The notes under the pieces: generated by a model | Seen by the model: only the letters and a program-made list of their open reading frames with translations | Databases searched by the model: none | Told to the model about the DNA's origin: nothing | Program-made: the position numbers and the translations under genes | Assembly (NCBI GenBank): GCA_000165345.1 | Contig: CM000432.1 | Span: 640,001 to 704,000 of the forward strand | Direction: 5' to 3' | Length of the DNA stretch: 64,000 nucleotides | Part shown: piece by piece, positions 11,045 to 58,300 of the stretch | Position numbering within the stretch: position 1 is the stretch's first letter | Layout of the letters: every line of letters starts with the position of its first letter

Positions 11045-11417
11045 GATCGACTGTAAATTTGGTCCCTAAGTCATATTTATCTGGAAGTTTGTTATTTACA
11101 ATCTAGTTATTTTAATGTACTTTTTTGCGATCCATTAATATCGTCCACTGCCGCAAAAAGACATTTCAAAAAATAACACTATGGAATCAATCGAGTTAAA
11201 ACTAACGAATAAATAAACTGTCTTTTACAATGATTAAGAAATATATTAATATTGTAGCCAAAAATGGAGTGAATATTGGCAAAGAAATCATTTGGATTGG
11301 TATTACAACTACTATTACTCTGTGTGTCCCCGTTCTCTATTACTATGAAAAAGAGTGCCAAATGTATGAAATTCACGCGAAAATGCTGCAGGGATAAAAT
11401 AGAATTTACTCTAAAAA

Positions 11418-22845: not shown

Positions 22846-23260
22846 CTCACAAGTAAATAATTTTTTAATTAAAGAAATTAAATATATATTTTATTTCGCG
22901 GGGCATTTTTTTTATTATTTCCAGAATGAACAAAAATGTAAATACTTAACAATTAATTACCAAAACCTATAAGTGAATTATAAAGAACAATTGTTTATAT
23001 TGGAATAATTTGATTTATTCTTTAAAAGTATAGGGTAATATTTACTATATAGTAGCATTTTGAAAATCCAGAGTCAAATATTAGAATTTAGATCTCAAAA
23101 AATTATTGTTAAATTCATTTTAGCTTAGCTTCGAGTTATTAAGTTACCGCACAAAGTGTGTCATTCTTACAAGTAAAAGGCAGATTTGCAAAAGTAATTG
23201 CATTTTTATAGAATAATACTTAAACAAAAAAAAATAAGGATAAATTGTTTATATTACGTA

Positions 23261-25350: not shown

Positions 25351-28300
25351 TGGAGATTTTGGTTCAAGCATTGTAATTGATTTTATTAACAATAATTTAG
25401 AAAATATAAAATTAGTTGAAGTGTTTGACAAAGATGAAAGAAATATTGACTCCGATTACTTTTCAGTTTACAGTGAAAATGAATTTCCTGATAAAATATA
25501 TGAGAGGGTAAAGCATATATTTGAGTCAGTAGTAGGAAATAAATATTTTCCAGAGTTAGATGATCCACTTCTTTCATGCGGAATTGAATCAATTAAAGCT
25601 GTGGAAATATGTAATGCGCTTTCAAAAGAATTTAATATTGATTTCCCTGCAACTTTAATATTTGATTTTCCAACTCTGAGACTTTTAATAGAGCATATTG
25701 ACCTTCTCAAAAATGGAAATAAGGAATACTTACCCAATGAAATCACCAGTGTACCTGGAAAAACTACTAGTGAGTTTGTTATTTCTGGAATAAATGCTCA
25801 CTTACCTGGTTTTAGCTCGAACAACCCGTTTGTGAAGCTTTGGGAAGTAATGATGAATAGTGCAAATGTATTTTCTCCTGTTCCACATGAAAGATGGAAT
25901 GCATATTGTTTTAATGAAAAGAAGTCTATTTCTGCTATTCAAAAAATTAAAAACTACTATACTGATACAGGTGCTTATATTATTGGATCAGAATTTTTCG
26001 ATTTAGAAAAATTCAAAATACTTCCAATAGAAGTTGAGCATATGGATCCACAACAGAGATTACTATTAAGGGGAACCGAAAAGATTTTAAAACATGTTGA
26101 ACTCCCAACAAATAATTCAACTGGTGTTTATATTGGATGTTGTTCTAATGATTGGAGTCAAATCATTTCTAATTCTACTCATCTTTCTGTTTACTCTGGA
26201 ACAGGCGCATCTCCTTCAATACTAGCAAATAGAATCTCATTTTATAATGGGTTCGCAGGACCATCTATTACAATTGATACTGCATGTTCTTCAAGTTTAG
26301 TTGCATTGGATATCGCCCTTCATCATCTTCAACAAAACATAACAAATACTGCTTTTGTAGCAGGAGTCAACTCAATACTAAACCCAAACATATTTGTTTC
26401 GTTGTGTAAAGCAAAAATGCTCTCTGATACAGGAAAATGCTCACCTTTTGATGAAAGTGCAAACGGTTTTGTTAGGGGTGAAGGATGTATAATTGTATGT
26501 ATTCAACATATATCAATAGCAAAGAAAAAAATTGCAACAATTCTCGGTACATATGTTAATCAGGATGGAAAAACAACAACTCTAACTGCTCCAAAAGGAC
26601 CATCACAAGTATCTGCAATAAGGAATTGTCTAGGAATTTCGGGAATGCATCCATCAGAGATTAATTATATCGAATGCCACGGTACAGGCACCCCGTTGGG
26701 TGATCCGATAGAGGCAGGAGCAATAATGTCTGTTTTTAAAACTCATAATGAATACCAATATAATGTAACTCACATGAATTCTAATATCGTAATAGGTGCA
26801 TTCAAATCAAACATTGGTCATTTAGAAGGTGCAGCAGGTTTAGCTGGTCTTTTAAAAGTATTACTTGTTATGTCAAGAAGATTTTTCCCAGGAATAGGGA
26901 ATTTAATAAACATCAATACTCATATTAAAAAATTGTTAAATGATAAAACAAATCATAATCGAATTATTTTTCCTAATATGAATGAAGGAAAATATTTTTC
27001 AGAAATAGGAATTGAAGAAACACAAGTTTTGCGATCCGGAATATCATCTTTTGGATTTGGTGGTACTAATTCTCACGTAATTATTGAAGAAGGGGCAAAT
27101 ATTAACTCAATTTGGGATATTGAAACTGAGGAGAACTCTGACTTACAAGAAGGCAATTACTTCCCATGGACTGCAAGATTTCATCCCTTCATTTCAACAA
27201 TTAACAACAAAGACGAAATTTATTCTTACGCTATTTCGAAATTGAAGTGTAAAAAATATGTTATTGAGCACATTATTAATGGATTAAGCATATTTCCTGC
27301 ATCAGGATATATTGAGCTTGCTATTATAACTTGCAGGCTCGCAGCATTAGATATTTCTAGTGGTGAACAAATTGTTTATATTCAAAAAAAAAATTCTAGA
27401 GATGAAATTATAAGCGAGTTCAAGAAGAGTAACTTTGATATACTAACTAGAGAATCAAATATATACTTATTGAAAACTTCCCCCGTAGTAATAAAGAACC
27501 TAGAAATTATTTCTGTTTTCAATTTAGATAATCTGGAAAATGAGGAATTAAATGCAAACATACATATTAATGAAGGAAAAGTTTCTATTTATTCAAAAAA
27601 TAGGGATTATTTCAGTTGTAATGCAAATTTAATTTTAGATATTGAATCAAACAACAGAATGGAAATTCTGGATAATTCCTTTACAGTTGATGAATTTAAA
27701 AAAGTATGCATACTTAGAACAATTGTTCATGATGAATTATATGATTTGTTAAATAATTCAGGATATAATTATATAGGTAGATATCGTTCATTGGAATATG
27801 TTTCAATTGGAGATTCAATTGGGTATGGAAAGATTAAAACGGATGAATATGACTCTAGTCCTTTTTGCATCGCACCCTGGATATTAGATTCAGCGTTTCA
27901 AGTTTTAGGAGGATTCTTAATTACTAATGGGAATATTAATGGACAATTCATTCCAGTTAGAATTGAAGAAATGTTAATCAATTCCGATATATCGTATTCA
28001 GAACTTTATTCTTTAGTAAAAATCACAAATATTGAAGAAAAACAAATAATTTGTAACATTTGTTTGATAAATGAAAAAGGTTCTAAATTGATTGAAATTG
28101 TAAAAATGAATTTCATAAAAAATGAAATTCCAAACCAAAAAACAGTAGTAAATTTGGATCATAAAAAAAAAATAGATCATCTAAATTCCAAAGTAGATTA
28201 CGAAAATAATTATTTTGGTATAAAATTAGATTGGAGACCAGTTGCAGCGTCGGAATTATTTGAAAATAACGATAATGTAAATAGTTATAGTATTATTACA

Positions 28301-31300
28301 TCTGATAAGCAATTTTCTAGGATAAATTCAAGCCTAGAAAAAACAGGAAATAAAATAATTAAATTTAATAAAAATCTTATTAATTTTGATGGGAATATTG
28401 TTTTCTTTAATTGCAAATTAGAGGAAATAAAAATTTCTATTAAACAAGCAAAAAGTGGAGCAAGGTTCTACATATTAACGAAAAACGCAATACCAATTGA
28501 AAAAATAATTAGAACTGATGGTTTTTCATTTGATAACTTATATTGGGACTCGATTAATCAATTTATTTTAGAAAACAATATTATTATTTCCGTTATTGAC
28601 ATAGAATCATTTGACGAATTGAATAGCCAAATTAAATTTGGAATTAACTATCTTGGGAAAAACAATATTAAAAATAAGATACCAAATATTTTGTTTGATC
28701 ACTTAGTAATTAGAAATGTTCAAATGGCAAGGGAGAGAAATCTAACCTTGATTGGCTATTCCGCTACTCCAATTCGAATTGGAAATTGCATCGGTATAGA
28801 TAATTTTAAATATGAACTAACCTCAAGAGGAGAACTTAAAAACTTCAAAATAAAATATTCTGAGAAATTTAAAATAGAAGAATTAGGGGATGATGAGGTT
28901 AAGGTTCAAGTTAAAGCAGTTGGGTTGAATTTTAGGGATATATTAAATATAATGAATTTATATCCTGGAGACCCTGGTGAACCTGGTAGCGACTTTTCTG
29001 GAATTATAATAGGTATTGGTAATAATGTTAAACCATTCAAAATAGGTGATCATGTTTGGGGATTTGCAAGAGGTTGCTTCAAATCTCAGTTGGTAACAAC
29101 ATCTACATTAATTTCTAAAAAGCCAAGAAATTTATCATTTGAAGAAGCTGCAGCTTTACCCGTAATCTTTTGCACAGTAGAAGCTTCATTCAATGATTTA
29201 TATAAAGTAAAAAAAGGAGATTTTGTACTGATCCATGCTGCAACTGGTGGAGTTGGTATTGCAAGTGTTCAGTATTGTATTAATAAGGGCGCAATAGTAT
29301 TTGCAACATGTTCTTCTAACTCAAAAAAAAAATGGCTTTGTGGATTGGGAGTTCATTATGTCTCAAGTTCGAGAGATCACAAAATATTTAACAAAGAAAT
29401 GAATGAATTCTTAAATATTGCATCAAAAAGATACAGAGGTGGAAAAAATGCAAAGTTTGATTTAGTACTCAATTGTCTTTCTGGTGAATTTATTCATGAA
29501 TCCTTTAAGAAAATACGTTCAGGAGGAACATTTATTGAATTGGGAAAAAGAGAAACTTTGGACTATTCTCAGGCAAAATCAAATTATCCAGAGATAAATT
29601 ATTTGAAACTAGCAATCGATGAATTGGTTGTGGGTAATGCCAAATATATTCAATCATTACTTTCAAGGTATGAGACTAATAATTTAATTAATACAAATCC
29701 TACTTTGCCTGTTAAGGTTTTTAAAATGGAATCTTGTACTCTAGAAGCATTAAGGTTTATGCAAAAGGCTTCTCACATCGGTAAAATAGTATTAACATTG
29801 CCACCTCCTCAAACACTAATGTTTGAGGCTTTTAATTACAAGACATTGAATATAGTTAATCTTGAAAAGTTTTCTATTGAATTATTCAAAAGATATGAAT
29901 GTAGTGAGTTAGTAGATTTACTGGACCAAGAATCAAGAAATTTTGAGTTATACAAAGATTGCGAATCAAAGTTTATTAATGAAATGATTACTAAAGGAAA
30001 TATTATCGGGCCATTCGAGATATTCTCCAAATACAAGAATATGTTGGAATCTTTGTTTTCAGCTAGTCAATCAATACCTTTAAAGGTAATTAACTATATT
30101 ATTGATAATGAAATTTTTGAAGAATTACGTATTCTTATTATTTCTCCAATATTTCCAGAAATATTATTGGATAAAATTTTATCATTTAAATCAGGCAAGG
30201 TGGTATTTTTAACAATTTATGATGAAAACAACAAGGAGAGATGTTATAAAGTAGGTAATAATATAGTAAATTATGTTAGCAGTATTATTAACCTTAATTC
30301 TGAACAATTCGACTTTGCAATTATCACCTCAACATTCTTTGGAAAACTTTCATTTATCTCATTAATGGAAAATATAAAATTGATGCTTAAAAAAGGAGGG
30401 CCACTTTTTATTATCAACCCATTTGGAGAAGGTTTAACATCAAGTATTATCAAACAGCAATATTGTAGTTATACATCAAAAATAATTGTTCCAATTAAAT
30501 TTAGAGTTGATTTTAATGTTGAAAACGTTATTGATGAATTTAAGTTGATAAATTGTGACAAAAATAAAACAGTTAAATTCTACTCTTTCGAAACAAATTA
30601 TTGGGATTCAGAATTTGTAAAGCAAAATAATACTGACGATAATGGATTCAAAAACAATTTTCATATAATTTTATCCCATAAAGAAGACGAAATATCTTTA
30701 TTTGCTGCTACTAAGTTGTTAAGCGAAGCAGGTGCAAACAATTTTGTGTATATATCAACGGAAAAAATTACAATTAATTACCCATTCAAGTACAAATTTG
30801 AAATTGAAAAAGAAAACTTTGTTCAAAATTTCAAAAGAATATTAAGTGGAAATGGAATTTACAAAATTTCGGGAATAATATGTTTGCCCTTAAATCATTT
30901 GGAATGCAAAGAAATTTCAAATATTCTTTGGGATATTCATTCAATTTCATTTATTTCAACTACATCTATTCAATATTTCTTACTTTGCTCTTGTAATGAC
31001 AAAAATAATTTAATATTAGAAACATTTTGTAGATACAGACGTAACATTGGTCTTCCTGGGCAAGTTGCTTTTTGGAATTATAATTCAGAACAAGTTTCCA
31101 ATCTTAATCATGGCTCATTTGTACAAGCTGCAATTAAACTTGCAATTGTAAGTAATTCTGCTTGTATTTACAAACCAATGAAAAATCAAGTTGAAAATAG
31201 CGAGGCTTGGGAAACTAACAGTAAAATTGTGTTTGATAAACAACATATAACGAACATAATAGTAAACACAATAAATGATATTGTAGGAATTGAAAAAATT

Positions 31301-34300
31301 GACTTTAACACTCCACTAATTGAATTAGGACTCGACTCTTTATCCGCAGTTGAAGTTAGAAATGCAATTTCTAACGAATTAAATATCGTTTTACCAATTA
31401 CCACATTATTTGATTATCCAACCATAAATTCGTTATCAGATTTTATACTAAACATTTCAAATACATCAACAAATATCTTATTACCAAAAACAAATAAAGA
31501 CAATATTGGATTAATTATTTCTCAAAATATCCCATCACTAAAAAATATTATTTTCTCTCAAGATAATAAATCTAAAAATCTAACTTCAAAACTATCAATT
31601 ACTGGAATTGGCTGTAGGCTACCTGGAAATACAAATTCCCCAATTGAATTTTGGGAAAGAACTTTGCTTTCTATGCAAACCTGGTCATCAGAAGTTCCAT
31701 TAAGTAGGTTTGATATTGATGAATTTTATTTAAATATAGATGATTATAAAAATATTAACTACTTATCAAAAAATCTAACTTATTCAAGGCATGGGACATT
31801 TATCGAAAGTATTGATTTATTTGATAATGATTATTTTAATATTACAACTTATGAATCTTCAACTATGGACCCACAGCAAAGAATATTATTGGAAACCACA
31901 AGCGATGCATTACATAGCTCAGGATATAACCCAAAGAATATTTCCAACTCAAATATTGGTGTATTTGTAGGATGTTGTGGGACTGACTGGAACTATCTTT
32001 CCACGAAATTAAATATGACAGCAACTTCATTTACAGCAACAGGCGCAGCTGCTTCAATTATCTCGAATAGACTTTCATTTATCTATGGCATTAAAGGACC
32101 CTCTGTAACAATTGATACTGCATGTTCGTCTTCATTAGTTGCATTAGATATTGCAAAAAAAGATATTAATTTTGGTAATATAGAAACAGCAATTGTAGCA
32201 GGCGTGCAGCTTTTATTATCTCCCTTGTATTATATAGTTTTTTCCAAAGCTAATATGCTTAGTCCTAGGGGAGAATGTAGAGCATTTGATGAATTATCTG
32301 ATGGATTCTTAAGAGGAGAGGGTTGTATATCATTGATAATAGAAAACCATTTAAAATCCTTTGGAAAAAAAATATATGGTCGAATTTGTGGTACAGCTGT
32401 AAATCAGGACGGAAAAAGTGCGAGCTTAACTGCCCCGAATGGACCTTCTCAAAAACGTGTAATTATTAATGCAATTGAAGATTCTTGCATTTCGAATAAT
32501 GATATATTTTATATAGAATCTCATGGAACTGGAACACCTTTAGGGGATCCAATAGAATTCGGTGCAATATCAGATGTTTTTAAAAATAGGGCAAATAAGC
32601 TTTACATTGGAACTCTAAAACCTAATATTGGTCACTTAGAAGGTGCTTCTGGAGTTGCTGGAATTTTGAAAGCTATATTAGTAGTTAATAATGGAGTAAT
32701 TCCTCCGAATATTTTAATAAATAAGTTAAATTCAGGTTTATGTTTTGATGATTCTAATATGAACATAGTATTTCCTACAAATAAAGTTGAAACCAATTCA
32801 AAAAGTTTAATTGCAGGAGTATCATCATTTGGATTTGGTGGAACAAATTCTCATATAATTGTAGAAACAGGTGACAGTGTGAATTCATGGGAATTACCTA
32901 GAATAGATTTCAAAAGAAAAAAATTTCCATGGATTACTCCAGCACATCCATATATTGGACCAAAAATCTCAGGATCTGATAATCTGTCTCACCCATCAGA
33001 ATTAGGTCTTATAATTGATGAAATGAGTAATATTACAAATATTAAAAAACCTGACTCAAATATAACCAGATTTGTAAGAAATGTTGGTGAAAATGTGTTC
33101 TCATCAATAGTTGGTCATGTGATACAAGGAAAGATTATTTTTCCTGGATCTGCATTTATTGAAATGTCAATAGGTGGACTCATTAATTACTCTATTCGGA
33201 GTGGAATTAAAGATGTAAGCTTACTTACTATTAGCAATATTCAATTCATTAAGCCTCTAATTTTCCCAAATGAATTAGGACGGAATCCTCAAGGAAAATT
33301 AATATGTGACATTTCTCCATATGAAAATAATAATAGGAAATTAAATATACGTATTTCAACATCAGGAATTGAATATGGTATTGACGAAATGATCTATCAT
33401 TCAACATTTACTGCAGAAATTAGTAATGATGACAATTTGAAGCTTTCTGATGAGACAATAAACTTTGATAAATGCTCAAATTTTAATTCTGATCAATTTT
33501 ATTCAGAATTAAATGAAATAGGGCTAAATTATTCTGAAAAATATAAATCTATTAGAAAAATATATAAAAACAAGACTGAGATATTTGGAATTATTGAAAT
33601 TGATTCTTTAAATCGAGAAATTGATACATTTTTCTTACATCCTTCATTATTAGATGGATGTTTTCAATTATTCGCTTTATTTATTGAAAATCATGAAAAT
33701 AAAGCCAATAAACCATTTATTCCTGTGAGTATTGAAGAAATGATATTTAAACCAATTTTCAATAATAATAAATATATTGTTCCTTATAACTCATTAACTA
33801 ACTTGAAATTTATTCATCCAATAAATAGATTATTTGCTTGCATTAAAAACAAAAAAATACTAAATAGCGAAGGAATAAAAGTAGACATAAATATATATAT
33901 TAGAGACGAAGGAACTGATGGGTTAATACAAATATGTGAAATTAGAAATCTGCACTTCAGAGAATTGATTCCGATGAAAACCATAAACTATCTCCCAATA
34001 AAAGATCATTACTCATGGATATCTACTTATAGAGAATTAGAACACAAATTTGATAATGATGAAGAATTAAATAAGCTAAAGTTTCTTTTTACATCTTTAG
34101 AAGTGAATAAATTATCACTCGAACAGTTTGATTACTTTGATAACAATAAAATTCTGAATTTGATTCAAGAAAATATTTTTTCCTTCAGTACTATACCTGT
34201 ATATATTACAAGCACAAACGAAAAAGATTCATATAAAGAGCTTATTTCTATACAAAGAACTCTTCAAAACATTTATAAAAATATTGATTCATATAATAAA

Positions 34301-37300
34301 TTAACAATTATTTTTGTCACTATCGGTGCGAACTTATTATGTGGCAAAAATACTTTATCATCTCACTTTCAATCATCTTTACTTTCATATTTAAGGTCTG
34401 CGAGCAACGAATTCAATCAATTAGGAAAAATAAGTTTGATTATTGTTGATTGGAATAGTATTTCAAACCTAAAAATTAACAAAAACTTTTGCCAAATATT
34501 GAAATTGATATATAACAATGTTATAAATAAAAAATGGTTTGAAAAAGAATATCAGTTACTAGAGTACAATAATGAAATTAAAATCAAAACTATTAAAATA
34601 AAAGAGTCAATTAGTCCATATAATAATTATATGGCTTTAAAACTTACAAATAGAGGAGCAATATCGAATATTATAACCAATTTACAGAAGTTTAGGGTTG
34701 TTCCTATGGAAGGGGAGGTGGAAATAAGAATAAGAGCAATTGGCCTGAATTTCAGAGATGTTTTAAATGTTATGGGATTATATCCTGGCGATCCTGGAAA
34801 ACCAGGGAGTGATTTTTCGGGTACAGTAGTATCTGTAGGGCCTGGAGTGAAAAATATTCAAGTTGGTGACGATGTATTTGGTCTTTCTCAGGGTTGTATT
34901 GAAACATATCATACTACAAATGCTTTGTTGGTTGCGAAAAAACCTAAATTATTAACATTTGAAGAGGCTGCATCAATCCCAACGATTTTTTCAACAGTAA
35001 AAGTTTCTTTAAACCAGTATTCAAAACTAAAAAAAGGTGATTGCGTTCTAATTCATGTTGCTTCCGGTGGAGTTGGATTAGCTGCAATACAAATTTGTTC
35101 TAGAATTGGTGCAAACATCATTGCTACAGTTGGAAGCATTAAAAAGGTTGAATATCTCAAATCTATTGGGATTAAATTTGTTTCAAGCAGCAGAGATTAT
35201 ACAAAATTCTCTCAAGATATGAAATATTTTATGAGTGAATTGAATATTGATGGTGTTGATATTGTTATAAATAGCTTAGTAGGAGAATTTATTCCGTTGT
35301 CAATGAAATTTTTAAAAAGAAATGGAACTTTTATTGAACTTGGAAAACGTGAAATATTAAGTGAAAATCAATTAAAAGAAATTAGGACAGACATCAATTA
35401 TCAAACTGTTGAATTTGACAAGTTGGTTGAAAATGACATTGTTTGGTTCCAAAATCTATTACAAGAGATAATGATAGATATAAATAAAGGAAAAATCCAA
35501 CCAATACCAACTAAAGTATTTAGTATTCAAGATAAATCAGGAATAATTGACGGATTTAGATATATACAACATGCTAGCCACATAGGGAAGGTTATACTGT
35601 CAAATCCAAGCACTTCAATTTGCTCATACAGTAAAGATGCATACATTATTACCGGTGGGATGGGCTCACTTGGTTTGGTTGTTGCAAATTGGTTAGTTGA
35701 AGAAGGAACGAAAAATATTATATTAATGGGTAGGAGTTCAATAGATTTTGAAAATAAATTTGCAATCAAGCTATTAGAGTTAAGTGAGAAGGGAAAAATA
35801 AACTTGGAAATGCTTAAATGCAATATTTGTGATTTAAATTCACTATTTAATATTATTAATAAAATTAAAGGAAAATATAATATTAGAGCAATCATTCATG
35901 CTGCAGGCGTGCTTAATGACGGGAGCATACTTTCGCAAACTGATTCAACTTTCCTGAGTACATTTCTTCCAAAATCTATCGGGGCTTGGAATATTCATTA
36001 CATTACAACTTCCTTACTAGAGCATATTCCACTTTTAATTATGTTTTCATCAATATCAGCACTGATAGGAAACAATGGTCAGACTAATTATTCTGCAGCT
36101 AATGGCAATATTGATTATTTATCAGAGATACGCTCTCAACTTGGAATGAAATCAATCAGTATTCAATGGGGTCCTTGGGGTGAACAAGGCATGGCAAAAG
36201 AAAACTTAAATTTAAAAATGTTAAAAGCAATTGGACTAGTTCCAATAAAAAATTCCTTAGGTCTTATCTCACTAGGAGGAATAATTTCTAATTGTATGAT
36301 AAACAAAGTTAATAAATATATTGTACAACCATTAGATCCTTTGGTCGTAAAAAATAATGCATTAACACACATTTTCAGTGAAATTGAATCAGAAGTACAA
36401 GAAACAAGAAATGGATATCTCTTTTCGACAATGAACTCGGAAGAATTACATTTATTCGTGCTTTCAAGTATTAAAGAAGCAATTTCAGATGCAATTGGAA
36501 TTGATGTTAATCTTATTGATTCAGAATTGCCATTTAAAGACCTGGGAATCGATTCTTTGTCTGCAGTAGAATTAAGAAATACTCTAACTTCAAAATTTGA
36601 AGTTAATCTTCCTCCAACTATAATAATTGACTATCCAACAATTTCAGAACTTTGCAAATATATAGAGATGATTATTGGAAAGAAAAATGTTAAGGAATTT
36701 GATAATAAAAATATAATACATTCTAATTTTAAGAAAAGTGATATTTTTATATCAGGAATTGGAATCAGAGTCCCCGGGGATGCAAGTTCAGTTTTTAAAT
36801 TCTGGAAAAACATGACTAGTCTGGTAACCTGTATATCTGAAATCCCTTATGAAAGATGGGATGTTGATAAGTTATTTGGAGATTACAATGACAAAAATGC
36901 AACATATTATACAAGAAAGGGAGGATTTATTTCTATCGTTGATATTTTCGACTACTCTAAATATCAAATATCGAAAGAGGAAGCAATTCAAATGGATCCT
37001 AATCAAAGGATAGCTTTAGATACTTGTTTTTCTGCATTATCGGATGCAGAGATTGAAATTAAAGATTTATTCAATACAAATGTGGGTGTATTTGCAGGGA
37101 TGTGTAATGATGAATGGGCAATACTTTCATCTAAAAGAAATTATTGTAATGCATTTTCAGGAACAGGAAATGCAAAATCAATCATTTCAAATAGAATCTC
37201 TTATGTGTTTGGACTAAAAGGTCCGTCAATAACTATTGATGCGGCATGCGCTTCTTCATTAATTGCAATTGATCAGGCCATAAAATCATTGAAAAATAAC

Positions 37301-46300: not shown

Positions 46301-49300
46301 AAGAAATTTAATATAGGAATAATTGGTGCTAGTTGTACGCTTCCTACTGGAATTGATAACCTTTCTTCTTTCTGGGAGTCACTCATGCTAGGCAAATGCG
46401 GCGTCAATCTGATTCCTTATAGCAGATGGAACTGTGAATTAGAGAATGATAGCATTACAAAAAATATATCAACTATTTTAGGGTTAGAGCTCTTTGATAA
46501 TAATTTATTTGGAATATCTAACATAGAGGCTCGTACAATGGATCCACAGCAAAAACATCTTTTAAATTCAACATTTAATGCACTAGTTTCTTCAGGAAAT
46601 TCTATTGAATCAATAAAAAATACAGACACAGGAGTATTTGTTGGATTGTGCAATATTGATTGGTCTTTGTACCTATTAAACGAAAGATCATGTAATTCTG
46701 CGTACATCGGTACTGGGACTGCAAGTTCTATTGCTTCAAATAGACTTTCTTATTTTTATGGTATTAAAGGTCCTTCAATTACAATTGATACCGCATGTTC
46801 TTCATCTCTTGTTGCAATTGATGCTGCATTTAAAAACATTTCACTTGGAATATGTGAAATGGCAATAGTATCTGGTTCTCAATTAATAACAACTCCAAAT
46901 TTATTTTCTGTATTTTCTAGGGCAAATATGTTAAGTAAAGATGGCCTTTGTAAATCATTTGACGAATCTGCCGATGGTTTTGGCAGGGGTGAAGGTGTTG
47001 CAACAATTATTTTGAAAAAATTTAACTTTAAAAACGAATCTAACAGAGCAGTTTTAGGAATTTTGAAAGGTACAGCTGTTAATCAAGATGGTAGAACTGC
47101 ATCTCTTACTGCCCCAAGTAGTAAATCACAGTCTGACGTAATTTCTCATGCATTACTTAGATCAGAAGTTCAATTTAATGAAGTATCAATGATAGAGTCT
47201 CATGGTACCGGCACACAATTGGGTGATCCAATAGAAATAGATGCGATAAAAACGGTTTATCAACTATCATCAAAGAAATTAGTAATTGGAGCTCTAAAAA
47301 CAAATATTGGGCATTTAGAAGCTTCGGCAGGAATTGCAGGTTTAATTAAATTATTGTTATCATTAAGGAATGGAATTTCGCCACCTAATTTACACCTAAA
47401 AAATCTGAATAAATATATCAATGTTGATAACACTAATATTGTTTTTCCAAGTTCAAAAACTAGGCTTTCTATCTCAAGCGATGAATCTTTTATTGGAGGT
47501 GTTTCTTCATTTGGGTTCGGAGGAACGAACGCACATGCAATATTGGAAGTTAGTAGTGCAAATAAAATTCCAATGATAAATGATATGGCAATTGCAATAC
47601 TAAATGAAGAATTTGAAAATGAATACACAATGAATATTACTCATTTAACTCAACTCCGTGAGTTAATTGCTAATAACACAATTTTTGAATCTTATTTCAG
47701 ATATTGCACAATGATTATCCTACAGATTTTAAACATAAATTTTTACGAAATTATAATTGAAAATAATGAAAAGTTACTCAGAGCAGAAGAAATGTATATT
47801 TTATTATTTGCATTTTATTATTCGATATATCAAACTTTAAAATATTGCAAAATTGTTGTCGATACATTCATTTCTGATGAATTTGGTTCAATATTATTTG
47901 ATACTATTACAAACAAAATTAAATTACCAAATGCAATAGAACTTCTTAAAGAATATTGTAATAAGAAATTATATTCTATGAATTCAAATCTAAAAATTTA
48001 TTGTTTAAATGAAAAAGAGAATCATCCATTTAAACTAGAAGAGGTTAAATTTTTAAACGCTAGTGTTGTGATAATAAATCCATTCACATTTAATAATAAA
48101 CAAAAAAAACAATTGAGAAACATGTCAAAATTAATAATACATAATGAAAGCAATTATTTACAGTTCATTGAAAATGTGATAAATAACTTTGGAAAAATGA
48201 GTAAGGTTTCAAAAATCGAAAGATTTCCATTAAACAATTATATCCACCCACTTCTTGATTCAGATATTGATTCAAGTTATAATATAGAAATTTCAAAATT
48301 CTTCATAGAGAGATATTGTGATCCTTCTTATGAAAATGAAACTATTCATCAGGGATCTATTATTATCATTTCTTTATTATTTGAATCTTTAATATCCATT
48401 TTAAACAAAAAACATAACCTTTCTTTGGAATTTAAAATTGAATCTATTGAAGGAATATACGAGACTGCAAATAGAGTGAGAAAATTTGACAAATATTCAA
48501 AATTGAAACTAATGAAGAATAAAGATCATTTTATTTTATGTGCTTTCAATGGACTTCCACTCTCATCACTCTCAATAAAAGAGAGTCTTGAGAGAAAACC
48601 ACAAGTTTACATTCCAGAAATAGAATCTCCCAAATATAATGAATTTAAAAAAACAAAAATTCCCAAAAATATATTAAAGTTGATTAGTTCCATCGAAGTT
48701 CACGAATCTTCGATATACATTAAACTTAAACTTCCTTTCTTTAATTTATCGGTTGAGTCCATTTTTTGTATTCACCCAGCCATATTTACCTTGATGATAT
48801 ACTCATCTATGGAAATCTTAAGTAAAAAGATAGATCCATTAAAAATAACAATTGAGAAACTCTCAAACATTATTATCTCTGATGTTTTTGATATCGAGAA
48901 AATATGCTGTAATTCAAGATATACATTAGAATTAGTATGTAAGATTAATGAAGGAAAAAATATTAATATAAACTTATGGGTAGCAGACGATTATGGGATT
49001 CAACCAACAGAATTATTCTTACAATGTGATGTTATTTTTACCGAAAATAAAGTTAATATAATTAATTCATCAACTGGATTAGTTTGGAATACTATTTGGA
49101 AAGAAATCAAATATAATTTGATTTCTGAACAAAAACAAGGAAATAAATTAATAATTAACTTTAACAAAAATACTATTATTTCAAGGAAGGATTTAATGGT
49201 TAACGACATATTCATGAATTATTCACAATTTTTAGAAGATAATTTTGACTTAAAAGACATAAATAATATAATTGTTGATATGTGTATTCCAATTCCAAAT

Positions 49301-52300
49301 AATTGTCAAATGAAAGAAATAGACCAAAGTTATTTTGTAATATCAGAAAATTGGGAAATAGATTTTATTCAAACATTTAAAAAAATAATAAATAAAAACA
49401 ACAGAAATGAATCGATAAATATTTTCATTTTAGTCAATAATACTGTTAAAACTGTAGAAAATGATCAAATTAATATGAATATGACCTGGGTATGGGGGTT
49501 TATGAGATCTTTGAGAATGGAATTAAGTTCTAAAGTAAAAATTTTACTGATTGATATTGACATTAATCAACTTGAAGAGAAAAGTTGCCTAAATACTGAA
49601 CAATCGATCCAAGTAACTAATATTGTATCAAATGTTAAAAGTTTGGATGAAGATGGGGAATATGAATTTGTAATTAGAGAAAATAAAATATTTGTTCCTA
49701 GATTGAAACAGTATGAATTTGGAAATCATATTAGGGAGAAATCTCAGACTGATCTAGAAATTTGTAACATTATTACCGGTGGTCTAGGAGGAATTGGATT
49801 GGCTATTGCAGAGTGGTTAATAGAAGTTGTTGGAATGAAAAATATATTATTATTAAGTAGAAATCCACATATGTCAACAAAAAAATCTAAAAAATGGAAA
49901 CAATTAACAGAAAAAACCAAAGAAAATATATTGATTGAAAAGTGTGATATATCAAATAGTGCAGAAATTGTAACTATAATTGAAAAATACAGTAAAATAT
50001 ATAAAAAAATTGGCGTAATGCATATTGCTGGCTCTCTAATTGATTCGAATATTCATAATCTTACCGATAATATTGTTTCTGATGTTAACTTGCCTAAAAT
50101 TAGAGGAATTATTAATTTACATAATGCAACTTTAAACAAAAATTGCGAATATTTTATTGCATTTTCCTCCATAACTTCACTTATTGGAAATATTGGTCAA
50201 TCTGCATATGCTGCTGCAAACTCAGTATTAGATTCTATTATTGAATTTAGAAGGAAACTAGGTATGCCAGGAAATAGCTTACAATGGGGTGCTTGGGCTG
50301 AACAAGGAATGGCAGCAGAGAATGAATTACTGCAAAAAAATTTGGTTAATGTCGGTCTTTCATTAATAAATAATAATATAGCATTTGAAATTATTAAATA
50401 TATTATCTCTGATTCAAACAAATTCCCGTCAGTTTTAGCGATTCAACCTGCAAATTGGGATAAATTTATAGATAAAATTGGAATTAGGTATGGAATTCTC
50501 AAAGAAATAACATCAAACAAAATAAATCATGATAGAATTACTATTCTCAATTCAATATCTGCTGAGAACAGAATAGATTTTATTTCAAATAAAATTATTT
50601 CAATTTGTAGTGAAGTTCTTGGAATTGAAAATGATCTGAACTCTGAACAGTCTTTGATGGACTTTGGAATTGATTCTATTATGGCAGTTGAAATTAGAAA
50701 TTCTCTTTGCGATAATTTTGGAATTTCCCTTTCACACACTATATTATTTGATTATCCCACAATTTCAAGCCTTTCAACATATATTAATCAGAAATTCATG
50801 TCAAACTGTAAAATAGAAAAAAGTCAAGAGCAAATGAATTTAAAGGAAAATTTGTTTGATTACAATGTCGCCGTAATAGGTGCAGCTTGTCGTTTACCAA
50901 AAAATATTACTAATTTAAGTGGACTTTGGGAACTGTTAATGGAGTCTAATTGTAGTGTAGGAAAAATACCTTATAATAGGTGGGATAGTGGCTTATTTTT
51001 CTCTGAAAATATTAATTCTGGAAAAATGTATACTGAGTCTGCAAGTTTTATTGATGGAATCGAATTTTTCGATAATTCAGAATTTAAAATATCTTCAAGT
51101 GAAGTCTATTATATTGATCCTCAACAAAGAATAATTATGGAAACTGCATTATTGGCTATAAAAAGCTCCAATGTTAAATTAGAAACACTAGTAAATTCCT
51201 TAACAGGTGTTTTTATTGGTTGTTCTTCTAGTGATTGGACAATCTTGACCAATACAGCATCAGTTCCTCCTGGGCCTTACACAGGTACTGGAATTTCCTC
51301 ATCAATATTATCAAACAGAATTTCTTATATATTTGGATTCCAAGGACCTTCTTTTACAATTGATTCTGCTTGTTCGTCTTCTCTTGTGGCCTTAGATTCT
51401 GCATTTGAAAAATTTAAAAACAATAATATTCAATTTGCTATAGTAGGAGGAGTAAATCTTCTTCTTTCTCCTCAACCATTTTTGGCGTGTTGCGCTGCAA
51501 ATATGCTTTCTTTTGATGGTATTTGCAGAAGTTTTGATGAAAAAGCAAATGGATATGGAAGAGGAGAAGGATCTATTTCACTATTGTTAACATACCTATC
51601 TAAAGCAAAAGAAAATAATGAAAAAATACTTGGTATAATTAAATCCACATCTGTTAATCAAGATGGAAAAAGTGCTACTATTACTGCTCCTAATGGCCCC
51701 TCACAGCAATTTGTGATAAAACATGCAATCGAAAAAGCTAATTTATCTCCTTCAAATATAACTTATATTGAAACTCACGGAACTGGAACCAAACTAGGTG
51801 ATCCAATTGAGTATAATGCTATAAAATCTGTGTTTAATTTGGAAGATAATACATTCGATAATAATGTTTGTTTATTGAGATATTCTCCACTATATTTAGG
51901 TGCAATAAAAGCTAATATTGGACATTTGGAAGGTGCTGCTGGAATTGCAGGTTTAATCAAATTAATTTTAGTTCTGAATTACAAGGTTGCTGTTCCAATC
52001 CCAAATCTTAGAAAAGTTAATCCATTAATCGAGTTAAATAATTTTAATGCAATATTTCCCATGGATAAAAAACCAGTAAACATTAAGAATGACTCTAACA
52101 TTATTTATGGAGGGATTTCATCCTTTGGATTTGGAGGAACAAATGCTCATGTCATAATTGAGTGCAATTCAGATAATATAACGGAAAACAGTATTTTGTT
52201 CCGTTCAGAAAATTTCTCTTTAAGAAGAAAAAACTATGCTTGGTCAGATACTAAACATCCTTTAATCGACGAAAAAATATTGGAAAATATCGGTAATAAG

Positions 52301-55300
52301 AACTCAGAACTAAATGGAATTAAATTATTTAGAAATATTAATCATAAAATATTTAGTTCAGTAAAATTTGCACTTAAAGTCAATAATGATATAATAAACA
52401 TGCTTTCTGATCACGTAATTGATAACAAAATAATATGGCCTGCTGCTGCATTTATTGAAATGATTTTAGGAGTTGCAAGAAATATATATATTTGTAACAA
52501 TGAACAAATTTCATTTTCAAAAAGAATTTTAAAAACTAACATAAGAAATTTATTATTTGAACAACCATTAATATTAGAAAAAAATGAAGAAAATATATTA
52601 GTTTGTGATTTTGATTTGAGACTTAAAAGAATAAAAATATATTCTGAGTTAACATATGAAAGCAATAATGAGTTGATTTATGTATCATCTGAGATTGGAA
52701 ACACGGATAAAATAGAAATGATAAATGAAGGGTGTTTAATAAATGATCTAGAGATTTCAAAAGAAAAGGAACTAGATATTTCATTAATTTATAATAGATT
52801 AATGGAATTGGGAATTCAATACGGCAAAAAGTTCAAGACAATAAAGAAAGCATGGAAACTAAAATCAGAAAATGAAGCTTTAACAAAAATACAACTTAAT
52901 AGTGACGAATATATCATTAAATCAGATGATTTAAGTGCCCAAGAACCTTTTCTTTCTTTAACAGAGTTAGGGTTTGGAATTCATCCAGCTTTGCTAGATG
53001 GAGCATTACAATCATCCTTTATTTGCATTAGCGAAATAAAAAACGATTTGGAAAAAATTATTTGGGTTCCATTCTCGATATCTGAAATAGAATATTATAA
53101 TAATCAAGAACCAATATTAGAAGCATGGGTACATTGCAAAGTTTCACCCACAAATAACAAAAATGAAGTTATCTCAGATATAAAAATCTATTCAGTGAAT
53201 AAAGATCTGCTATTTAATATCAAAAATATTAGGTATAGAAGTACAATTGATATAAGTAATAAAATTATTAAAGATTCAAAAGAAAATAATCCAGAAAATA
53301 TCAAAAATTGTTGGGGATTAACTTGGAAAAAATCGAATAACATTTTAGATAAAATTGAAAAGAAAAGATGGATGATATATTTGGGTGATGAAATTGAAAA
53401 AAAGAGCAGCTTAAATAATTTATTTAAATATTATTGGAACAAAAATGACATTTTAGAAGAGTTATCTGATTTTTCTGGTGAAATCAACATTGCATTCGTA
53501 ATAAATTCTGGAATCAATAATAAATTACATAATCATGGCATTGAAATAGTAAATTGGCTTAAACATCTATTTGATATTAACTCTAAAGTTTCTCGCTCTT
53601 CTGTTATTTTATTTATAACAGAAAACACAATCCCTCATAATAATAATAATCATAAATTTATTGGATCAGATATTTGGGGTCTTGTGAGATCGGCTAGGTA
53701 TGAACTTGATAAATATTCTCTTAGATTGCTTGATTTAGACTGCTTTACAAAAGATTTAAGTGAAGATAATTTATCAAAAATATTTTCATGTATTTTAAGT
53801 TCCAACGAATCAGAATTCATTTTTAGAAACGGAGAGCTGCTATTTCCCCGTTTATCAAAAATTTCAATCCCAATAAACGGACCTTTAAATATTAGATTGG
53901 CTGAAAGAGGTGCATTAACAAATTTATTAACAGAGATGCAAACAAATATTCCATATATAAATTCAGATAAAAAATTGGATCTAATCGACTGCTTTGATAA
54001 ATTGGAGAATTATTCTGAAATGAAAAATGAGCCTATTTTAAAAGATAACGAGGTATTACTGAGAATATGTTCTGTAGGATTAAATTTCAGGGATGTATTG
54101 AATGTTATGGGCTTATATCCAGGTGACCCTGGCCCTCCTTGTTCTGACTGCTCAGGAATAGTAGTTTCTGTAGGTAAAGGCGTGAAGCATCTAAAATGTG
54201 GTGATGAGGTATACGCAATGGTCCCTGGGTGCTTAAATACATTCATAGTTGCAATTGGAGATACTTGTTGCTTGATGCCAAAAAATTGTGACTTTTCTTT
54301 ATCTTCATCAATACCAACAATTTATTCTACTGTTGATATTTGTTTGAGAAAAATTTATAATATTAAGAAAGGAGATCGCGTATTAATTCATGCAGCTTCA
54401 GGAGGAGTTGGATTGGTCGCAGTAAATTACTGTAATTCTATTGGTGCTAAGGTATTTGCAACCGTTGGGAATAGTAAAAAGGAGAAATATTTGAGACACC
54501 TGGGAGTAAAGAATATTTCGACCAGTAGAAATTCTGAATTGTTCAAATTAGAAATGGAATGCTTATTAAAAGGAGAAAAGCTAGATGTGGTGATAAATTG
54601 TCTATCTGGGAAATATATTGAATATAGCTTGGAGTTACTTTCAAACAATGGTATCTTTATTGAACTAGGGAAGATAAACATTTTATCAAAGAAAGATGTA
54701 TCCTTAATAAAACCTGGAATTAGGTACGAAATTGTAGCTCTTGACGACTTAATATTAAATGATCCCTCATGGTTTGGAACTGTCTTAGTTGATATTAAAA
54801 CAAGAATTGAAGAATGTAAAGAATCTGTTATACCCTTAATAGAATTCTCAATGGAGAACCATAAAGATTCAAATGATCTAATCGAAAAATCTGGATGTAT
54901 TTCTGGATTTAGATTTATGCAGAAGGCAAATCATATAGGTAAAGTAGTAATAAAAAACCCAACTCTTGATAATTCTTTATCTAGAAAAAATGGAGCCGTA
55001 ATAGTTATAGGAGGAAATGGATCTCTAGGGAAATTTACAACGAAATGGCTTTATTTTAATGGATTAAAAAATATAATTTTGTTATCTAGGAGTTCAAATA
55101 ATTATGCTTCAAATCTACCTGGTGTTAAACAAATTAGCTGTGATATTTCAAATATTAATTCTACTATTTCAGCGATAAATACTGTACTTGAAAATCCAGA
55201 AAGTAAACCAATTGTAGGTATAATTCATGCTGCAGGAGTATTAGACGATAGGAAATTATTTGAACATTCAAAAGAGTCATTTAAATGCGTATATAGTCCT

Positions 55301-58300
55301 AAAGTTCAAGGCTTATGGAATATTCATCAAATAACTCAATATCTCTATATTGAATTGGAATTTTTAATCGCCTACTCTTCAATTGCGAGTCTATTAGGTA
55401 ATATTGGACAAGCAAATTATTCTGCGGCAAACTCTTTCATAGACTCTTTTATGAGCTATAGATCAAGTCTTGGAATCAATAGTTTTAGCATTCAGTGGGG
55501 TCCTTGGCTAGGAGAAGGAATGGCATCAAACAATTTAAGTTTGAAATTTGAGTCTACAGGATTAATTGGAGTAGATAAATTAACTGCGATGCAAGCGTTA
55601 AATACGATTATAAAATCAAAAAAAAAATCAATTCCAAATGTGATTTGTGTAGTAGATGCTGATTGGGGAAAATTAGTTTCTAATATTCCTCCCAAAACTT
55701 CTAATATCTTTACAGATATAATTAATAAAAAAATCATAGAAAAAGATTACAATAAGTCGAAAATTATGGAATTATTGGAAAAAAAGAGTTCGGTCGAAAT
55801 GGAAGATTATATAATTAATTTACTAAGGGATATTATTAAAACAGTTGTCACTGACGATAAAATAGATATTAATGATTCCAAATTACTAGAAAAACCACTT
55901 CACGAGTTTGGGATAGATTCACTTTCTGCTGTTGAGTTCAGAAATATTTTATCTAAACATACTGGAATATTACTTCCGACTACATTGATGTTCGATTATC
56001 CAACGATAATAAACATAAAAGATTATATTCTGAGTGAAATGGAGGACATTAGACTTGGAGACAAATCATGCGATCCTTTAGTTACTGATATTAAGAAAGA
56101 TCGAATATTAGATATTGCTATTATTGGCTTGTCTTGCAAATTACCTGGATCAACTGAAGATATTGAATCATTTTGGGAGATATTAACTGGTGGTATTAAT
56201 TGTGTTTCTAATGTACCTGTAGTTAGATGGGATCATAAAAAATATTTTAGTTTAAATCTAGAAAATTTTGGTCCATATTATTATGCAAATTATGGCTCAT
56301 TCATTGACAATATTGATATATTTGATGCACATTATTTTGGAATTTCCCCTTCAGAAGCAACAATTATTGACCCTCAACAAAGACTTTCCCTTATGCTTGC
56401 AGTACAATCAATTGAGGATGCAAAATTAAACTTGTCAAAATTGAAAGGAACAAAAACTGGTGTCTATGTTGGATGTGGAAATAGTGATTGGGCATTAATG
56501 CAAGGAAATCAAATATCTGAATCAGAATATATTTCACCTTATACTGGTACTAGTGTTGCGCTTTCACTTATTTCTAATAGGATTTCTTATAATTTAGGCC
56601 TGAATGGACCTTCTATGACAGTTGATACTGCATGTTCATCATCTCTTGTTGCACTGGACATAGCTGTACAAAATCTTAGATGGAAAAAATCTGATATTTC
56701 CATTGTAATTGGAGTAAATTTATTAATTTCTCCCCAAGCATATATTGTATTTTCCAAGTCAAAGATGCTATCTATAACGGGAAGTTGTAAAACTTTTGAC
56801 AAAGATGCTGATGGATATGTAAGAGGGGAAGGATGTTGTTCAATGGTACTTTGTAGATTTGATGAAAGAGAAAATGTAGATTTTGATAAAAAAACTTTAA
56901 AAGCTGAACAGAATATTATTATCTATGGTTTTATTAAAGGTTCAGCAGTAAATCAAGATGGAAGAAGTGCTTCTTTAACAGCTCCAAATGGTCCTGCGCA
57001 ACAGAAAGTAATAAAATCTGCTATTGAAGATTCGTACATAAAGTTAGATGAAATTTCAATTATTGAAGCCCATGGAACAGGAACACAGTTAGGGGACCCT
57101 ATTGAGTTTGGAGCAATAAAAAATGTTTTCAATTCCAGAAATAGGGGTCCAATTTATATTACAGCGTTGAAAACAAATATTGGACATTTAGAGGGAGCAT
57201 CAGGAATCGCAGGAGTTATAAAGATGATATTGATGCTTAATCATTCAATCGTTCCAAAAAACCTTCATTTTAAAACATTAAACCCATTGATTGACAATTC
57301 TAATTTTAATGCAATAATCCCAGATAGAAAATTAAAAGTTTCAGCTAACATAGGGGGAGTTTCATCGTTTGGATTTGGTGGAACAAATGCTCACGTAATA
57401 ATTGAAAAAAATATCTCAAAAATTCCTCTTGAAAATCAAAACTATTCAATAATCGAAAATACTAATAAGGAAGTTTCAAATAAGATAGCATTTATATTTA
57501 CTGGCCAAGGAAGCCAGTTCGAGAATATGGGTCAAGAGCTTTTTGAAAATGAACCTATATTTAGAAAATCAATGTTAGAATGCGCAAAGCATGCCAATGA
57601 ATATTTACCAGAATCTTTAATTGAAATTTTATACCCAGAAATTTCAACACCAAGGACTAAAGCTGGATCGAAAGATGCTGGTTTTTATGATATTAATGAT
57701 ATTTTGTATTCTCAGGTTGCAATTTTTTCAGTAGAGTATTCTCTTACAAAGTTATTAGAGAGCAAAGGAATAATTCCAGATTTAGTAATTGGGCATTCCT
57801 TAGGCGAATACTGCGCTGCAGTTATTGTAGGTGCAATTGAACTAAACCAAGCATTAAAAATGATAATAAATAGATCAAAAATATTGGAGAAATCAAATAT
57901 TAGTGATGGAGGAATGCTTGCATTGAGAAAATCTGCGAGTAGTATTGCAGAAATCCTTAAAGAGTTTGATGAAAATAATGTATCATTGGCTGCAGTTAAT
58001 GGGCCAAATAGTGTTGTGATTTCCGGAAGAAAATATATATTAAAGTCAATATTAGAAAGATTAGGTGGTAGTGGAAAGTTTCTTAATATAGATAATGCAT
58101 TCCATTCATCCCTAATGCAAGATGCATCAAATAAATACAAAGATTTCATTGAAGAAGAAATAGTTTTTTGTAATGAAAATAAAAAGAAAATAAAGTTTAT
58201 TTCTACATTGAAAGGAAGACTTATAAATTATTCTGAATTGATGAGTTCTGATTATTGGTCTAACCACATAGTTTGTCCTGTATTGTTTTATGACGCAATA

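Follow-up and report, generated by a model that had tools for sequence, protein, structure and literature searches.

CpPKS1 in the window

We analysed a 64,000-nucleotide stretch of DNA (hereafter the window; GenBank assembly GCA_000165345.1, contig CM000432.1, positions 640,001 to 704,000 of the forward strand) that carries a single giant open reading frame (ORF; nt 23198..63502, + strand) encoding a modular polyketide synthase (PKS). A first-pass annotation, made from the letters of the window alone, had proposed that five of the seven PKS modules lack an integrated (cis) acyltransferase (AT). Our analysis confirmed this. By Pfam, a custom profile hidden Markov model (HMM) and a six-frame scan, complete ATs are present only in modules 3 and 7, and the other five modules have no functional integrated AT. 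The enzyme appears to have descended from a module type with the order ketosynthase (KS), AT, dehydratase (DH), enoylreductase (ER), ketoreductase (KR) and acyl carrier protein (ACP), from which the AT was probably lost in two ways: as a whole cassette in modules 1, 2, 4 and 6, and by decay in place in module 5.

The first ATG of the ORF lies at nt 23261, giving a protein of 13,413 aa; residues are numbered here from the start of the frame (aa 1 = nt 23198; nt = 23198 + 3(aa - 1)). This 13,413-codon ORF is CpPKS1 (cgd4_2900) of Cryptosporidium parvum, on chromosome 4, because the ORFs flanking it exactly match C. parvum Iowa II proteins: nine of them are identical to such proteins (EAK87818-EAK87825 and others), placing the window in the cgd4_28xx-29xx neighbourhood of chromosome 4. 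CpPKS1 was reportedly published by Zhu et al. in 2002 (Gene 298:79). The gene name cgd4_2900 is given to this PKS in PMC7371110. In the literature, CpPKS1 is described as a 40-kb, intronless gene for a seven-module enzyme of about 13,411-13,414 aa with an acyl-ligase (AL)/ACP loader and a C-terminal reductase (PMC6568194, PMC7464705, PMC10394414); its domain organization is drawn in Figure 8 of PMC10394414, which cites Zhu 2002 for the seven modules.

The domain map of the ORF has the same architecture. Pfam and the custom HMMs placed an AMP-binding and a PP-binding domain in the loader, followed by seven KS domains and an NAD_binding_4 domain at the C terminus (Table 1). For domain detection, the protein was split into the loader and seven modules, and each was scanned against Pfam at E <= 1. 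All seven KS domains retain the Cys-His-His triad, and the phosphopantetheine Ser is present in all eight ACPs.

Complete acyltransferases in modules 3 and 7

Matches to Acyl_transf_1 were confined to module 3 (E = 1.9e-31) and module 7 (E = 7e-47). A PKS-type AT HMM was then built from 36 AT domains of PKSs and fatty acid synthases (FASs), comprising AT3, AT7 and 34 external sequences taken from the matches to a query of aa 6885-8861, and was searched, with all filters disabled, against the whole window translated in six frames. AT3 scored 300 bits and AT7 331 bits, and aa 8154-8249 of module 5 matched in part (26 bits, i-E 4e-8); apart from these three stretches, nothing in the 64 kb exceeded 6 bits. 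The relaxed-threshold scan for hidden complete ATs, which the first-pass annotation had named as a check on its own claim, therefore found none, and module 5 yielded a truncated, dead relic only. All matches in the search that supplied the external sequences (query aa 6885-8861) were bacterial or fungal PKSs of at most 3.4 k aa, giant Cryptosporidium proteins being seemingly absent from the collection.

The catalytic motifs required one correction. Two GHSLGE-type sites and two GQGSQ motifs had been annotated. The former count stands, with GHSLG occurring exactly twice in the ORF (aa 5045, nt 38330; aa 11532, nt 57791), but GQGSQ is found once only, in AT7 (aa 11436, nt 57503). The oxyanion loop of AT3 reads GQGSH (aa 4959-4963, nt 38072) and lacks the second Gln (Q72 in the numbering of TgPKS2, a PKS of Toxoplasma gondii). 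Because Q69 and Q72 of PMC9301873 are the two Gln residues of GQGSQ, AT3 corresponds to a His variant already reported from Cryptosporidium: D'Ambrosio et al. 2022 described, in each of C. parvum and C. hominis, one AT whose conserved Gln is replaced by His and which is 'located in the 3rd module or later' (PMC9301873). In TgPKS2, the substitution Q72H abolishes malonyl-CoA hydrolysis and H72Q restores it, and AT3 of TgPKS2, which carries GQGSH, is hydrolytically inactive (PMC9301873). By analogy, AT3 of CpPKS1 may be inactive through its GQGSH loop, and AT7 may be the sole canonical AT of the enzyme.

Both complete ATs follow their KS almost directly. The KS-AT linker domain is missing at the KS3-AT3 (nt 38009-38032) and KS7-AT7 (nt 57404-57448) boundaries, and the gap between KS3 and AT3 is about 9 aa between HMM boundaries. 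Measured from the KS end to position 1 of the AT HMM, the distance is 1 and 13 aa in CpPKS1 versus 71-122 aa in 16 bacterial, fungal and insect PKSs and FASs. A short KS-AT junction is common to proteins of Chromera, Gregarina, Cardiosporidium and Rhytidocystis. The spacing implies a predicted KS-AT geometry unlike that of DEBS or mammalian FAS.

TgPKS2 resembles CpPKS1 in being an apicomplexan modular PKS with short KS-AT linkers and one GQGSH AT, which is inactive in TgPKS2 (PMC9301873). It differs in having an AT in each of its three defined modules, whereas five modules of CpPKS1 have no functional one.

Clean absence of the AT from modules 1, 2, 4 and 6

In modules 1, 2 and 6, position 1 of the DH HMM lies 37, 58 and 63 aa, respectively, beyond the KS end (GFGGTNxH), and the catalytic His of the DH lies 64, 87 and 87 aa beyond it. 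KS1, KS2 and KS6 thus run into DH domains within about 70 aa, as had been annotated, and an AT of ~330 aa cannot fit in these modules because the KS-DH spacing is too short.

All seven modules share a basic motif of the form (R/K)(R/K)x-(F/Y)-x-W...HP(L/F/Y)(I/L), which we refer to as the post-AT-linker motif. It is placed after the AT in modules 3 and 7 and after the AT relic in module 5. In modules 1, 2, 4 and 6 it lies 20-30 aa past the KS end; the motif nearly adjoins the KS there, and the AT is thus cleanly absent as a whole cassette. Neither GxSxG nor the relaxed pattern [GSA]xSx[GSA] occurs in the module 4 gap (aa 6878-7610), the module 5 gap (aa 8114-8860) or the three KS-DH junctions. 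The first-pass annotation had described long GxSxG-free regions after KS4 and KS5; the motif is indeed absent from both, but the stretch after KS5 is not featureless, as it holds an AT relic.

A decayed AT in module 5

What follows KS5 is a homologue of the N-terminal two-thirds of an AT, with scores of 26-34 bits from the custom HMM. An HMM built from the 34 external ATs, with no sequence from the window, gave the relic 32.3 bits, compared with a maximum of 10.7 bits in 3000 shuffles (0/3000). Profile comparison by hhalign matched the relic to AT with 92% probability, and its top PDB sequence match was the ZmaA AT (4qbu), in the right register. The broad Pfam Acyl_transf_1 model missed the relic, which the PKS-type AT HMM detected; single-sequence phmmer searches of AT3 and AT7 against the modules gave only marginal module 5 signals, and Pfam at E <= 10 on the isolated module 5 relic, module 4 gap and module 7 post-AT region returned noise only.

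An AlphaFold2 (AF2) model of module 5 aa 8114-8650, computed from a three-row paralogue alignment, had a mean pLDDT of 34.5 and reached 62-84 only across aa ~8154-8253. Foldseek matches of low root-mean-square deviation on this relic core were all of the AT family (PksD, Lsd14, Pks13 AT, FabD and MAS AT), with weak E-values and a bias from the AT3 and AT7 rows of the alignment.

In the relic alignment, GHSLGE is replaced by SDEFGS (nt 47873-47890) and TGQGSQ by TMNITH (MNITH for GQGSQ), and the conserved Arg is unmatched. The C-terminal ~130-150 aa, including the His of AFHS, are deleted, so that the small subdomain passes straight into 'RFPL..HPLL'; the HPxx motif comes 237 aa after the KS end in module 5, versus 379 aa in module 3 and 400 aa in module 7. 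The nucleophile Ser, the His, the GQGSQ loop and the Arg of a functional AT are thus all absent from the remnant. Taken together, the profile matches and the lost residues identify the stretch as a truncated, catalytically dead AT relic of ~210 residues.

We also considered module 5 as a functional, divergent AT. This was rejected, as the stretch has lost about 150 aa together with the Ser, the His and the GQGSQ loop.

Module 4, reductive domains and neighbouring genes

The stretch after KS4 (aa 6881-7205) showed no AT or DH signal, with hhalign probabilities of 0.3% against AT and 0.2% against DH. Among 1.84 billion proteins, the sole homologue of these N-terminal 325 aa of the gap was a 219-aa C. 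hominis fragment; other matches covered the ER-like part that follows. An AF2 model of the module 4 gap, with DH paralogue rows, had a mean pLDDT of 32.9. The stretch may represent a DH in a state of extreme decay, or else an insert specific to Cryptosporidium. The ER-like domain downstream was missed by Pfam and matched the ER of Chromera velia Cvel_19857 (E = 2.5e-18) in the library-wide search described below. It sits in a module without a detectable KR or DH.

The catalytic His and Asp are both retained only in DH1, DH2 and DH6. In modules 3, 5 and 7, the DH-like domain downstream of the AT or its relic is a pseudo-DH in which the catalytic His and/or Asp is missing (Table 1). Modules with an AT or AT relic (3, 5 and 7) therefore all carry a pseudo-DH, and the DH motifs of the AT-less modules 1, 2 and 6 are intact. 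Module 1 has an intact-looking DH and an ER, with no detectable KR; between ER1 and ACP1, nt 29813-31237 (aa 2206-2680, 475 aa) gave a weak KR-like BLAST match (E = 0.001) and no KR HMM match. The active site of KS3 (nt 37205-37225, about aa 4670-4676) reads DAACAS, versus D(T/S)ACSS in the other six KS domains; its Cys is kept.

The DNA of the window is about 29% G+C. The coding strand of the PKS is purine-rich, with a GC skew of +0.07 to +0.17 and an AT skew of +0.06 to +0.09 in every 4-kb bin (24000-64000), and the genes flanking the PKS ORF have mixed skews. The neighbour ORFs at 6457-9708 (-), 10052-11044 (+), 13246-15303 (+) and 19383-20693 (-) have no Pfam domain and are hypothetical or uncharacterised in Cryptosporidium species.

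Table 1. Coordinates of CpPKS1 and its mapped domains in the window
Feature	Position (nt)	Strand	Residues (aa)	Remarks	Evidence
CpPKS1 ORF	23261..63502	+		AL-ACP loader, seven KS-containing modules, C-terminal reductase	ORF list, Pfam scans, custom-HMM domain map
KS1	25772..27085	+	859-1296	Cys-His-His intact	Pfam, custom HMM
Module 1 KS-to-DH junction	27086..27187	+	1297-1330	about 28-aa spacer, FPW...HPFI; no AT	junction alignment
KS2	31586..32863	+	2797-3222	Cys-His-His intact	Pfam, custom HMM
Module 2 KS-to-DH junction	32864..32944	+	3223-3249	KRKKFPW...HPYIG; no AT	junction alignment
KS3	36737..38008	+	4514-4937	DAACAS active site, Cys-His-His intact	Pfam, custom HMM
AT3	38033..39040	+	4946-5281	GHSLGE, Arg, YAFHS; GQGSH (nt 38072-38086) replaces GQGSQ	Pfam 1.9e-31, HMM 300 bits, motifs
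Module 3 pseudo-DH	39203..40114	+			
KS4	42572..43837	+	6459-6880	Cys-His-His intact	Pfam, custom HMM
Module 4 stretch	43838..44812	+	6881-7205	325 aa, starts with degenerate post-AT-linker motif KRKSFEW	no AT/DH signal
Module 4 ER-like domain	44813..45598	+	7206-7467	missed by Pfam	blastp vs ER2 9e-14; CurK ER 5dp1 2e-4
KS5	46310..47545	+	7705-8116	Cys-His-His intact	Pfam, custom HMM
Module 5 AT relic	47570..48223	+	~8125-8342	aligned core aa 8154-8249 = nt 47657-47944	AT HMM, hhalign, PDB match, AF2
Module 5 pseudo-DH	48224..49117	+	8343-8640	RFPL..HPLL start; catalytic His and Asp absent	weak 7zmf match, hhalign 12%
KS6	50864..52159	+	9223-9654	Cys-His-His intact	Pfam, custom HMM
Module 6 KS-to-DH junction	52160..52255	+	9655-9686	RRKNYAW...HPLID; no AT	junction alignment
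KS7	56111..57403	+	10972-11402	Cys-His-His intact	Pfam, custom HMM
AT7	57449..58459	+	11418-11754	GQGSQ nt 57503-57517, GHSLGE nt 57791-57808, Arg, NAFHS	Pfam 7e-47, HMM 331 bits, motifs
Module 7 pseudo-DH	58571..59497	+			

Conservation of the AT-less layout in relatives

Relatives were collected by a library-wide HMMER search, and their domains were mapped with HMMs made from the window's own domains. The protein Cvel_19857 of Chromera velia (P0143, 6729 aa) has the order ACP / KS-DH-ER-KR-ACP / KS-DH-ER-KR-ACP / KS-AT-DH-ER-KR-ACP, and EP01054_P004682 of Gregarina sp. Poly1 (P0148, 5971 aa) reads ..DH-ER-KR-ACP / KS-DH-ER-KR-ACP / KS-AT-DH-KR-ACP. A further Chromera protein, Cvel_6212 (P0169), is a lone AT-less KS-DH-ER-KR-ACP module with no AT in the polypeptide, and fragments from Cardiosporidium and Rhytidocystis contain KS-AT-DH.

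The AT-less junctions of these relatives match those of CpPKS1, an example being 'WERKFFPWQEPFHPLLG'. The same junction, consisting of the KS, a spacer of ~25 aa, (R/K)KxFPW...HPLxG and the DH, is found in C. parvum modules 1, 2, 4 and 6, in modules 1 and 2 of the Chromera protein and in Cvel_6212, and in looser form in Gregarina module 2. Moreover, the [-AT][-AT][+AT] order of CpPKS1 modules 1-3 is repeated in C. velia, a free-living chromerid, and in Gregarina. Because both the junction and the module order recur in Chromera and Gregarina, the AT-less layout appears to be ancestral to this family, old and maintained, rather than the product of recent decay. The chromerid and gregarine enzymes differ from CpPKS1 in that all of their ATs have GQGSQ, with GQGSH found only in AT3 of CpPKS1, and in that no AT relic was seen in them. 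Pairwise KS identities are flat at 37-47%, both among the seven KS domains of CpPKS1 and against those of Chromera and Gregarina, with neither module sub-families nor one-to-one orthology; the order of AT deletions and duplications is therefore not reconstructable from them.

AT-less modules have precedents in protists and bacteria. PKS-like multi-modular enzymes of chromerids and coccidians have at least one module without an AT (PMC7464705), and AT-less multimodular PKSs are widespread in algae, where most multimodular PKSs are reported to rely on free-standing ATs (Shelest et al. 2015, PMC4661987). CpPKS1 resembles bacterial trans-AT PKSs (for example that for bacillaene) and algal ones in having modules that contain a KS and an ACP but no integrated AT and that must obtain their extender from outside (PMC4661987). 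Unlike these trans-AT PKSs, CpPKS1 itself still carries two integrated ATs, and no separate AT gene lies nearby. Its AT-less modules (five of seven) are the one bacterial-type feature that we found; it has neither a discrete AT gene within 64 kb nor a KS-flanking subdomain. The comparison with trans-AT docking regions proposed by the first-pass annotation was accordingly negative, with KS-to-DH distances of 37-63 aa in CpPKS1 versus 182-190 aa in a small sample of two bacterial AT-less modules (P0005, P0026). In the literature, protist KS domains make up a separate clade, in which those of apicomplexans are placed (PMC5029157).

A bacterial trans-AT ancestry was likewise considered and rejected: what the AT-less modules have at their junction is the post-AT linker of this family itself, and module 5 holds a decaying cis-AT.

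Source of malonyl units for the AT-less modules

The AT-less modules look built for chain extension, because their KS triads and ACP Ser residues are intact, and malonyl for these five modules must come from outside them, because they have no functional integrated AT. In the first-pass annotation, the suggested sources were a trans-acting supply, the two resident ATs working across modules, or the FAS1 of the parasite. An outside source does follow from the present data; however, the 'two resident ATs' may be one, given the GQGSH of AT3, and malonylation of the ACPs by themselves had been omitted.

We favour donors that act beyond their own module. ACP1, 2, 4, 5 and 6 would be malonylated by megasynthase-embedded ATs; candidate donors are AT7, perhaps AT3, and/or the three CpFAS1 ATs. 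A separate trans-AT of the FabD type would not be required, and the donor AT would act on carrier domains with no KS-flanking docking subdomain of the kind kept in bacterial trans-AT systems. What this explanation says about structure and evolution is very probably correct. Loading of the AT-less modules' ACPs by embedded ATs is a tentative proposal that we place a little below an even chance, and the explanation as a whole, structure and history together with loading, is in our estimate evenly poised.

Several observations are consistent with embedded donors. The window contains no stand-alone AT, as had been annotated, judging from the six-frame HMM scan and from Pfam on ten neighbour ORFs (transporter, DnaJ, tubulin and others). 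A search of 5.8 billion proteins with AT7 gave no match named Cryptosporidium, with many matches unnamed and sensitivity limited; that collection includes ordinary-sized Cryptosporidium neighbour proteins. Cryptosporidium has neither an apicoplast nor type II FAS (PMC2995488, PMC7464705), and no FabD is therefore expected. CpFAS1 (cgd3_2180), a sister megasynthase with the same AL-ACP loader, reductase terminator and module type as CpPKS1 (PMC2995488), has one AT in each of its three modules; unlike those of CpPKS1, all three are complete KS-AT-DH-ER-KR-ACP modules (PMC2995488). In a table of C. parvum and C. bovis genes under selection, the two entries for 'acyl transferase domain' are cgd3_2180 (FAS) and cgd4_2900 (PKS) (PMC7371110).

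Other points weigh against embedded donors. If AT3 is dead through its GQGSH (PMC9301873), a lone C-terminal AT7 would have to reach ACPs across 1.5 MDa. Cvel_6212 is AT-less with no AT in its polypeptide, so the supply need not come from the same chain. Self-acylation of ACPs has direct experimental precedent in an apicomplexan PKS (bioRxiv 10.1101/2023.05.23.541938). In addition, our AT census covers 64 kb of a genome of about 9.1 Mb.

A more specific scheme can be drawn from the conserved module order. Myzozoan assembly lines would, in this scheme, follow an 'AT-sharing' logic that is neither that of cis-AT nor that of bacterial trans-AT systems: one embedded AT would serve the AT-less modules that precede it, in a [-AT][-AT][+AT] supermodule conserved from chromerids to Cryptosporidium and without a KS-flanking docking domain. 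We regard this scheme as rather doubtful. If it were true, the decay of AT5 and the GQGSH of AT3 would leave AT7 alone charging up to seven ACPs in a 1.5-MDa protein.

The main rival to embedded donors is self-malonylation, in which the carrier domains of the AT-less modules would load themselves from malonyl-CoA onto the phosphopantetheine arm, with no AT. ACP2-4 of TgPKS2 are stated to self-acylate in the discussion of bioRxiv 10.1101/2023.05.23.541938, which cites its ref. 41 on this point. Self-loading would account for the lone AT-less Chromera module, and would also explain why an inactivated AT5 and an AT3 with the His variant are tolerated. However, the modules of TgPKS2 contain ATs, so the precedent does not show that an AT is replaced in vivo; moreover, AT7 (and AT3) is intact and one AT is kept in each multi-module Chromera or Gregarina relative, which argues that AT activity is still needed. 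We consider self-malonylation unlikely as the general source, though it deserves to be taken seriously.

Some AT-less modules might instead not extend the chain at all, being skipped, serving as processing or transfer stations, or degenerating, in which case fewer than seven malonyl units would be incorporated. The many degenerate domains (pseudo-DHs in modules 3, 5 and 7, no detectable KR in modules 1 and 4, and relics of an ER in module 4 and an AT in module 5) suggest relaxed constraint on parts of the enzyme. Against this stand the retention of all seven KS triads and every ACP Ser, an ORF uninterrupted over 40 kb, and the conservation of AT-less KS-DH-ER-KR-ACP modules in Chromera and Gregarina; non-extending modules are thus improbable.

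The AT-less modules might also be served by a discrete trans-AT of the classical kind, known from bacterial and algal PKSs, whose gene would lie elsewhere in the C. parvum genome. This would agree with the free-standing ATs reported for most multimodular algal PKSs (PMC4661987), and the window is only 64 kb of about 9.1 Mb. The negative results within the window, the lack of a Cryptosporidium-named match to AT7 in a search of limited sensitivity with many unnamed matches, the absence of type II FAS from Cryptosporidium (PMC7464705, PMC2995488) and the absence of the KS-flanking docking subdomain typical of trans-AT systems together make such an enzyme very unlikely.

Finally, a cryptic but complete and active AT fold in the 325-aa stretch that follows KS4, or at another place in the AT-less modules, is scarcely credible: aa 6881-7205 are of about the right size and have no assigned fold (AF2 pLDDT 33), but they give no AT signal with filters off, only 0.3% against AT in hhalign, and no GxSxG or relaxed nucleophile-elbow motif, and they open with the post-AT-linker motif that begins the DH or pseudo-DH in other modules, while modules 1, 2 and 6 have no room for an AT and that of module 5 is without its Ser, its His and one third of the domain.

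Implications for CpPKS1 and its family

CpPKS1 and CpFAS1 are thought to make oocyst-wall lipids and are proposed drug targets. The AT-less state as such is already known for this enzyme family and is apparent from published domain maps. The module 5 AT relic, the module 4 ER relic and the shared post-AT-linker junction are details additional to the literature that we consulted, and further useful additions are the connection of AT3 with the GQGSH variant found inactive in TgPKS2, the lack of a KS-AT linker domain, and the conservation of both junction and module order in Chromera and Gregarina. Both the prediction of the CpPKS1 product and the reconstitution of the enzyme depend on knowing which domain loads the five AT-less carrier proteins. 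The identity of the donor would also show on what a modular synthase runs in an organism that has no FabD: one or two embedded ATs, or ACPs that load themselves.

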